From a virus (taxonomy: Duplodnaviria; Caudoviricetes), in IMG/VR virus record IMGVR_UViG_3300005405_000055, positions 1-39,976 of that record: 39,976 nt of DNA; one strand, written 5' to 3'. Positions within the stretch are counted from its first letter, which is position 1, and the number at the start of each line of letters is the position of its first letter. Positions 38,191 to 39,976 of this stretch are shown one piece after another. The notes beneath the pieces are model-generated. The model made no database searches, was not told the DNA's origin, and saw only the letters and a program-made list of their open reading frames with translations. The position numbers and the translations under genes were made by a program.

Positions 38191-39976
38191 ATGCCTACCG
38201 CCGCTATTTATTGTCGCCAATCGTTCTACAAAGAAGACTCCTGCTCCATTGACATGCAAATTGAACGTTCCAAAGCTTTTTGCATTAGCCAGGGATGGGA
38301 TTACATAGTTTACGATATAGATAAAGGCTATTCTGGGAAGGACACTGACCGGCCAGGGTTCCGGCAAATGATGAAAGATATCACAGCGGGCAATATCAAT
38401 TATGTAGTGGTCTATAAACTGGATCGTATCTCTCGTAATCTTAAGGATTTCTTCGGCCTCATGGAAGAGTTTAAATCTCGAGAAGTTGGGTTCCGGTCCT
38501 TGACAGAGAACTTCGATACTACAACACCAATGGGTCGGGCCATGTTGGCTATAATTGCAGTCTTTGCCCAGCTGGAAAGAGAAACTACAGCTGAACGTGT
38601 ACGTGATAATATGCTAGACCGTTTCCGCTTAGGGATATGGAATGGTGGGCCTATCCCCTTTGGGTTCCTTGGGGACAAGACTACCATATTGGTTAATGGT
38701 AAAGAAAAAGCTGTTTCCGTCCTAGTCCAGGATGAAACTGAAGCTGAATATATTAAGCAATTCTATGGGTGGTACCTGGAACCCCAGGGCTCATACCTTT
38801 CGAATACTAAAAAAGCTAATGGGCTTGGAATACCAACGAAATCGGGAAAAGCCTGGAACCCTAATCAGATGCAGCGGATTATGAAAAACCCACTATATTG
38901 CGTTGCTGACCAGGCTGCCTATGAGTATTTCTCTACCCTGGGTATAGAAATGGCCTGCGATCAATCAGACTTTGACGGTGTCCATGGTCTTATGTGGTAC
39001 AACAGAAGAAAACCCCATAAAAAAACGACTAGGCTCAAAGATCAATCTGAATGGGTAGTAGCCGTTGGTGGTCATCCCGGAATTATCCCGGGAAAACTAT
39101 TTGTTAAGGCTCAGAAAAAGATTGTAGCTACTACATTTGCCCCGGCTAGGACGGGTACCGGGAGTAAGGGTCTCTTAGCATCGTTGATTAAATGTGGCAA
39201 ATGCGGTAAGGCTATGGTTTATGCGGACTATAACCATGGTACATGGCAGTACTATAAGTGTCGCTCCAAAGAGCAGCAGGGCTCCTGTGTCTGCTCCGGG
39301 CAAACCGTTAAAGGTAATGAGCTGGACCAGGCAGTAGTTACTGCTATTAAACAGATCTGTGCTGACAGGGCTTTCCTTGAAGACATTGCCCGACAGGCAA
39401 TTAAAAACACTGCAGATAATACTAAACCATTACTCGAGGATAAACATCACCTCAGTGGCAAGCTGGATGCCCTCTCCGCTGAACAAAAAGAGCTTGTCCG
39501 GGCCCTAGGTAAGAAAACCATGCCAGTAGAGCTTATAGAGGAACGTATACAGGAAATAGAAAGAGAAAAGGCACCCATACTTAAGCAAATGGAAGAAATA
39601 GATTCTAAGCTGGATACTCAGGACTGGCAAAAGATTGATATGGAAATGGTCTTTGGTAACCTACTCCGGTTCAATGAAGTTTTTGATGAAATGGAATTTG
39701 AGGAAAAGAGGATTTTTCTTCGTAGTATCGTAAAAGAGATAATATACGATAAGGGTAAAATAAAATTACTTTTATATTTCCTACCGGAAATAACATCCGT
39801 TAATCCGTCCGGGAGTAATAACAATTCTGGTACTTCTATTATGAATCCCTGCCTCTGCGGCAACTTCGGTTCAGATATAGAGTGCCGCTGTACTCCCCTG
39901 CAGATACATAAATATATGGGTAGAATATCAGGCCCCCTGCTGGATAGGATGGATTTACATGTAGAAGTACCACGAA
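38191..39976 (+). CDS. Large serine recombinase (integrase), open to window end and in frame with ComM C-terminal half
   Basis: [20 protein letters not shown] (Ser11), [33 protein letters not shown] zinc ribbon, coiled coil. No stop in 595 codons (checked codon by codon). Confidence 0.95.
39841..39976 (+). pseudogene. comM: 3' half of host comM/yifB (Mg-chelatase-like AAA+ ATPase) split by the prophage
   Basis: [45 protein letters not shown] matches the ComM/YifB signature MNPCPCG...C.C...[12 protein letters not shown]. Confidence 0.9.

Follow-up and report, generated by a model that had tools for sequence, protein, structure and literature searches.

The stretch analysed here (the window, 39,976 nt, an entire viral record) is a partial prophage. 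Its minus strand carries genes for tail sheath, capsid, portal, terminase, replication and a repressor, an integrase gene lies at the right end, and the left break falls within the tail genes, so that the far prophage end is outside the window. A low-GC accessory block is located between repressor and integrase (28937-33178 and 36068-38072). Its products include a type I-like methyltransferase, which has an HsdR N-terminal domain, together with a specificity subunit. A gene for a ParA-like ATPase is followed by two ORFs with no matches in Pfam, NCBIfam or PADLOC. The block may be defence cargo. Also upstream of the integrase gene (int) is a gene (34587-36038) for a protein with a metallo-beta-lactamase fold, a copper amine oxidase domain at its N-terminus and an Ada-like Zn tail; a similar gene is found upstream of int in the related locus L001 (503-1390). 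The named homologues of the integrase belong to Peptococcaceae, Pelotomaculum and Syntrophomonadaceae, pointing to a host from these groups of Firmicutes. The features at the right end are as follows.

38095..38106, plus strand: LexA/DinR-like palindromic box GAAC-N4-GTTC, 96 nt upstream of int, perfect in the window and in L179
38178..38183, plus strand: Shine-Dalgarno-like AAGGAG preceding the int ATG, recognised by sequence
38191..39780, plus strand: body of a large serine integrase (aa 1-530), assigned by its domains and by a model of homologue P0003, which matches solved serine integrases
39781..39840, plus strand: phage-encoded linker (aa 531-550) that also bears the outer phage att arm, from comparison of homologue tails and the P0003 model
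39826..39849, plus strand: phage (P) half of attL, matching the P half of L179 at 18 of 24 bases and that of L001 at 15 of 24
39850..39851, plus strand: presumed central dinucleotide TG, the first two bases of the Cys codon in the comM motif MNPC, placed by the attP symmetry centres of relatives
39852..39976, plus strand: 3' half of host comM (YifB family), in frame with int as far as the contig end, beyond which the full record has another 118 aa

The integrase frame extends from the ATG at 38191 to the contig end through 595 codons without a stop, with Pfam matches to Resolvase (4-141), Recombinase (182-311), Zn_ribbon_recom (328-387) and Mg_chelatase (551-594, E 6e-13). Its catalytic, recombinase and zinc-ribbon domains, catalytic serine and four cysteines are those of a large serine recombinase (LSR): R9 and S11 are invariant in the catalytic domain, C335, C338, C357 and C368 in the zinc-ribbon domain, and a coiled coil is present. 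The full-length record of the same protein (P0002, encoded on a 59,673-nt contig) is a 713-aa product ending in the ComM C-terminus (Mg_chelatase_C at 608-703). A preliminary description of this DNA, made from its letters, had proposed a stop-free fusion of a serine integrase to the C-terminal half of ComM, with comM as the integration target and a stop to be reached by extending the contig. All of this is borne out, the stop by the end at 713 aa and the target by the Mg_chelatase match from residue 551 together with a matching comM 5' side in run X1, the single run in which this DNA is present and possibly its source. Another viral contig (L004) shares the first 212 integrase codons at 99% identity and the same upstream region, and stops before the junction.

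The palindromic box upstream of int resembles the LexA/DinR operator of Firmicutes. With at most one mismatch it occurs in 5 of 14 int upstream regions, three of the five being close kin, as against 0.43 expected from shuffled sequences. This suggests that int may be under SOS control and could be expressed in the lysogen upon SOS induction. Two more perfect boxes are present in the phage genome (window 14697 and 18634).

The junction had been placed at codon 551. The frame is as then claimed. In relatives the crossover falls on the TG of the Cys codon, here codon 554 with its TG at 39850-39851. In the window the crossover can be placed only within 39841-39851, because the innermost bases of its P half are host-like (GGG in L179, CCC in the window), and the frame is identical either way. 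The host-like inner arm is probably natural variation, P0006 and L005/L167 having extended shared cores as well. In run X1, two unitigs hold the comM 5' side up to 39841 (an attB-type left arm), and a 3537-nt unitig of a sister phage, with 8 other letters over 103 nt, departs from the window after 39843 into a frame that resembles the helix-turn-helix (HTH) tails of relatives. This attP unitig comes from the sister phage and not from the window prophage, and a search for a copy of the HTH tail within the 39,976-nt window found none.

With 130 nt between the junction and the contig end, and with an inner arm that is host-like, unlike those of L179 and L002, an assembly chimera or a chance read-through near the contig end has to be considered, and the preliminary description had itself allowed for a stop or indel at this place. 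A 130-nt unitig of run X1 (39741-39870) crosses the junction with 0 differences and no indel listed; it has just 30 bases on the comM side and stems from the possible source sample. Separate in-frame junctions are, however, known from other samples (L002, L179, P0012, P0014, P0052, P0054 and P0073), and other host-like inner arms are those of P0006 and of L005/L167, the latter within a shared core of 15 nt. We regard an artefact as largely refuted and extremely unlikely.

Junctions of four types are found among the relatives. They are the intact comM gene, Int-ComM(C), the reciprocal ComM(N)-HTH, and a free form in which the integrase carries a tail with tandem XRE HTH domains. Hence attB, attP, attL and attR are all documented in this clade, though not all in one sense-type element. 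That the att site lies inside int, as proposed, is seen from these four types, and close relatives (79-84% identity) show that the lysogen encodes Int-ComM(C) and the free circle an integrase with another tail. The nature of that other tail had not been foreseen. It is conserved, spans about 150 aa and contains two XRE HTH domains. Many homologues among the best 120 of 3138, from 7998 scored candidates, have about 150 additional C-terminal residues bearing such domains, and Int-HTH accounts for 19 of the 78 tails examined; Pfam HTH_3 was found in 8 of 9 Int-HTH proteins scanned and was absent from P0079. In L001, holin and amidase genes come after the fused Int-HTH gene, the layout of a circle in which the two prophage ends are joined. 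The lysis cassette of L001 also contains a peptidase gene (6082-7074, PHROG 16701) adjoining amidase and holin.

The reciprocal product is encoded at the other prophage end. A search in which the tail by itself served as query gave 4 proteins, among them P0122, in which ComM residues 1-352 continue in frame into the tail. Scanning DNA for the pattern yielded 2 loci, the L001 site and L170, the latter a second comM 5' half reading into the tail through 340 codons without a stop. ComM(N)-HTH retains Walker A (aa 222) and Walker B (aa 304), and the ComM(C) piece is without Walker motifs. Three genomes each hold both ends of an element inserted antisense in comM. The split of the YifB/ComM gene is seen as a 3' half in the window, a 5' side in run X1 and both ends in these three genomes; the far ends of the L002/L003 and L198 elements are absent from their own records. 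Among the matches listed by broad scans with alignment A1 most were unrelated LSRs, at least 15 of 164 loci being flagged for a comM or HTH match, duplicates included. We are confident that the window represents a comM prophage whose serine integrase has the att site in its own gene, with Int-ComM(C) in the lysogen and, probably, Int-HTH in the free circle, as in close relatives.

Two oddities were met among the relatives. In L173 and L174 a comM 5' fragment (aa 28-70, 81% identical to P0122) occurs at the record end, about 2.8 kb downstream of the comM 3' half of the L002/L003 element; it is perhaps a second copy or a tandem insertion. P0015 joins the N-terminus of a CI-like repressor to an integrase without catalytic domain and with the HTH tail kept, and looks like a product of deletion or misassembly.

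An imperfect inverted repeat of about 50 bp with a 2-bp centre marks attP in the relatives; the window holds only its P half. At the five natural attP loci the best inverted-repeat centre pairs 16, 17, 15, 17 and 12 of 24 bases. Twelve control windows of L001 coding sequence gave 10-13 of 24, so that four of the five are above background and L190, with 12 of 24, is within it. The centres are TG or CA at codon phase 1 or 3, all four combinations being present among the five loci. When the ends of the three antisense elements are rejoined at the base pair matching the TG of the comM MNPC Cys codon, the ORFs lengthen from 553 to 699, from 558 to 709 and from 556 to 704 aa. Sense and antisense insertions thus cut comM at the same place. 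From the attP loci, and from the control of orientation by the centre in LSRs, we infer that a TG centre leads to sense and a CA centre to antisense insertion. Central dinucleotide and codon phase together determine what the integrated enzyme reads into, TG at phase 1 giving sense, in-frame integration.

How often the in-frame outcome occurs was assessed from 78 tails (P0002-P0084 minus five that were too short), scored for codon compatibility with comM in six frames and classified by scores and motifs, plain alignment being too weak for such short tails. Ten read comM in sense, 6 of them in frame and 4 out of frame; 44 read it in antisense, 13 in phase 1 and 31 in phase 3; 19 are HTH tails and 5 are unassigned. 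Weak assignments have scores of 35-40 that overlap those of HTH tails (up to 47). Among the 54 tails at a comM junction there are accordingly 6 with in-frame ComM(C), 4 out of frame and 44 antisense, and the HTH is absent from all 54. Two classes are confirmed by DNA, in-frame (window, L002, L179) and antisense phase-3 (L005-L007, L183-L185, L189), the sense out-of-frame and antisense phase-1 classes being represented by protein tails only. On a tree of 82 integrase bodies, P0019, which has the L181 tail, stands beside antisense phase-1 rows, and P0056, with the L188 tail, beside out-of-frame rows; the attP centres match in both cases. Codon phase tracks deep branches with the exception of P0062. 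The in-frame label changes 6 times, as against 5.9 for shuffled labels, and at least 3 changes are forced by strong branches. Orientation flips often, with the fusion following it. The suspicion that the frame at this junction might be random is largely right in so far as only 6 of 54 junction tails are in-frame ComM, and wrong in that the frame is fixed by orientation and codon phase.

What is retained is the HTH tail. It is in frame at all five natural attP loci with DNA (L001, L181, L186, L188, L190) and in 3 of 3 rejoined elements. Five tail pairs share 44-52% amino-acid identity, and identity at codon positions 1, 2 and 3 is about 0.6, 0.7 and 0.4, the third being least conserved in 5 of 5 pairs; the tails are conserved at the protein level. 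An AlphaFold model of P0003 (mean pLDDT 77.6, pTM 0.41) comprises the integrase, a low-confidence stretch at the att site (532-562, pLDDT < 50) and a well-predicted helical tail. A fold search with this model matched recombinases only and gave none for the tail, and modelling integrase aa 315-536 and the HTH tail as a complex yielded a score of 0.05 and a mark of 0.32, to which no weight is given either way. A search for an operator of the HTH tail found none. Two HTHs are not indispensable, as P0004, P0071, P0079, P0081, P0033 and P0067 have one HTH or have apparently lost the tail. Among distant LSRs (~30% identity), L129 (2501-4573) has a fused XRE HTH, and L100, L120, L138 and L162 have one just downstream, suggesting that the split-tail design may extend beyond the window clade.

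According to the preliminary description it is the ComM(C) fusion itself that is selected, either for directionality or stability of the integrase or for poisoning or complementing ComM rings. In-frame Int-ComM(C) does recur in six proteins (42-100% identity) as well as in L002 and L179, and the reciprocal ComM(N)-HTH has kept both Walker motifs. The sense orientation is also more frequent in phase 1 (6 of 19) than in phase 3 (4 of 35), but this difference is not significant (Fisher p 0.14) and the rows are not independent. Against selection of the fusion, an antisense or out-of-frame reading is found in 48 of 54 junction tails, the in-frame cases are scattered on the tree, and prophages related to phiCP51 split their integrase in the same way and lose the HTH tail with a comM match absent from the examined flanks of 35 of 35 loci. 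Moreover, comM would already be broken by the insertion, leaving little to poison. A special role for the ComM piece is therefore not upheld; we consider selection for it improbable and take the piece to be, with good probability, incidental. Loss of the tail, rather than gain of ComM, is likely to be what matters.

The tail, in turn, might be a passenger: a small regulator gene beside attP that became fused to int and works alone after restart or cleavage, long and short integrases behaving alike. A flexible linker separates the integrase and tail modules in the P0003 model, the tail number varies among homologues, and 2 of 3 antisense attR ends have an in-frame ATG at the junction. This is nevertheless unlikely, as all five natural attP sites and all three rejoined ones preserve the frame, in both codon phases, L166 has no Met near the junction, and a well-spaced Shine-Dalgarno sequence was seen by eye at 0 of 3 antisense attR ends. 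A further reading makes the tail a built-in directionality factor or brake, by which Int-HTH would promote excision or prevent re-integration once the prophage is induced. In its far-end position the prophage tail is like some genes for recombination directionality factors (RDFs). Engineered C-terminal Int-RDF fusions reverse directionality, to judge from the available text of PMC12286644; the same text has them block attP x attB, which makes a classical RDF an unlikely identity for the tail. Int-HTH would be the sole form available to an infecting phage and so must allow integration. We find this reading very hard to sustain, far more so than that of a passenger.

On balance we lean towards a tail that changes the behaviour of the integrase or of a promoter. 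An infecting genome would make only Int-HTH, which must then perform attP x attB, and the lysogen only the tail-less or ComM-tailed form, which must then carry out excision, a step that probably follows SOS induction and involves a directionality factor; no RDF of the window phage was identified. The HTH tail would be a DNA-binding module present only in the free state, serving as integration helper or as repressor of phage promoters, that of int included, and such repression would last until integration removes the tail. The ComM(C) piece is most likely a by-product riding on a flexible linker. Two large C-terminal fusions inhibited other integrases, as stated in the accessible part of PMC12286644, and for this reason the ~160-aa ComM piece may not be neutral even if accidental. 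For the host, the ordinary effect of insertion would be loss of ComM until excision, as ComM is a hexameric branch-migration helicase in Gram-negative models (available text of PMC6158740) and comM a frequent insertion target (likewise PMC12378983). The ComM halves might re-associate. For the sense in-frame subgroup one can picture a two-way domain swap used by the phage, in which the comM promoter would drive ComM(N)-HTH at competence, the halves re-associate, the tail returns to Int-ComM(C), and excision with repair of comM is timed to competence; we hold this to be decidedly improbable. A more modest idea, to which we give somewhat less than even chances, is that a broad group of serine integrases has a state switch built in, namely the HTH tail by itself.

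In the usual account a serine integrase is a single invariable protein, and its direction depends on a separate factor. The enzyme treated here alters its own gene and has one form for each state, a predicted DNA-binding module of 150 aa being gained or lost; a new means of controlling lysogeny or directionality can thereby be put to a direct test. In the titles and abstract openings of the open literature, which leaves most subscription papers outside, no serine integrase was found to shed an HTH tail or to exchange domains with comM. The interest lies in the HTH swap of a serine integrase and not in the ComM fusion. To the split integrase the window adds the reciprocal in-frame case. For engineering screens this means that integrases mined from comM prophage ends may be truncated or fused to host sequence and not be the naturally integrating form. 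Odd "recombinase-Mg chelatase" and "chelatase-HTH" proteins in databases are explained as junction products.

A similar system is that of Clostridium phage phiCP51. The phage record (KC237729, AGH27920) has a 655-aa serine recombinase with a C-terminal XRE HTH, and two prophages with 99% identity to it have 570 aa, the HTH tail being cut; a phiCP51-type tail (71% identical) lies at the far end of one of these prophages, and the other has no match. The genome note of 2013 reportedly placed attP within the recombinase ORF. The phage form with an XRE HTH tail and its loss in prophages are thus shared with the window clade. Differences are the ~30% identity, the single HTH, and the lack of both a comM match (0 of 35 related loci in the fetched flanks) and any in-frame host fusion seen. 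Judged from these loci, the Int/HTH split does not seem to be tied to comM.

Enzyme family and target gene are shared with comM-targeting LSRs (PMC10083194, PMC9203015). Of the predicted site-specific LSRs, 12.4% target the Mg-chelatase/comM family (Durrant et al., available text of PMC10083194), and Wolbachia sr1WO prophages insert in a Mg-chelatase gene (PMC9203015, in its accessible part). An attP in the recombinase gene, an HTH tail and fusions to target halves are not described in the portions of either source at hand. In sr1WO, single-domain XRE HTH genes lie at the end opposite the recombinase (PMC9203015, same part), which may be the same split.

An att site within int is known for tyrosine integrases (available text of PMC4383910 and PMC8371274). 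Archaeal "suicidal" integrases of SSV1, pTN3 and pT26-2 share with the window a recombination site in the integrase gene, which is split on integration (PMC8371274, in part), and that review calls self-disrupting recombinases exclusive to archaea. SSV-type tyrosine enzymes are split into presumably inactive halves, by the same account, whereas here all three LSR domains are encoded upstream of the att site and the N-terminal part is a complete serine integrase. In mycobacteriophage BPs, whose immunity depends on integration, attP lies in the repressor gene and integration removes a degradation tag (accessible text of PMC4557955); in both systems a phage protein has its C-terminus changed by integration, so that each state has its own form, and an HTH regulator is involved. 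Unlike in BPs, attP of the window phage is in int, and a separate CI-like HTH + S24 repressor is encoded at 27555-28376.

In myxophage Mx8, attP is inside the gene for the integrase IntP, host-derived sequence replaces the integrase C-terminus upon integration, and the two forms differ in activity. An attP within int and a replaced C-terminus are likewise found here. Mx8 IntP is a tyrosine enzyme and that of the window belongs to the serine family, so that the latter works like the Mx8 type without being a member of it. Unlike Mx8, the window-type serine enzyme sheds a separate folded XRE module and keeps its catalytic and att-binding domains in full.
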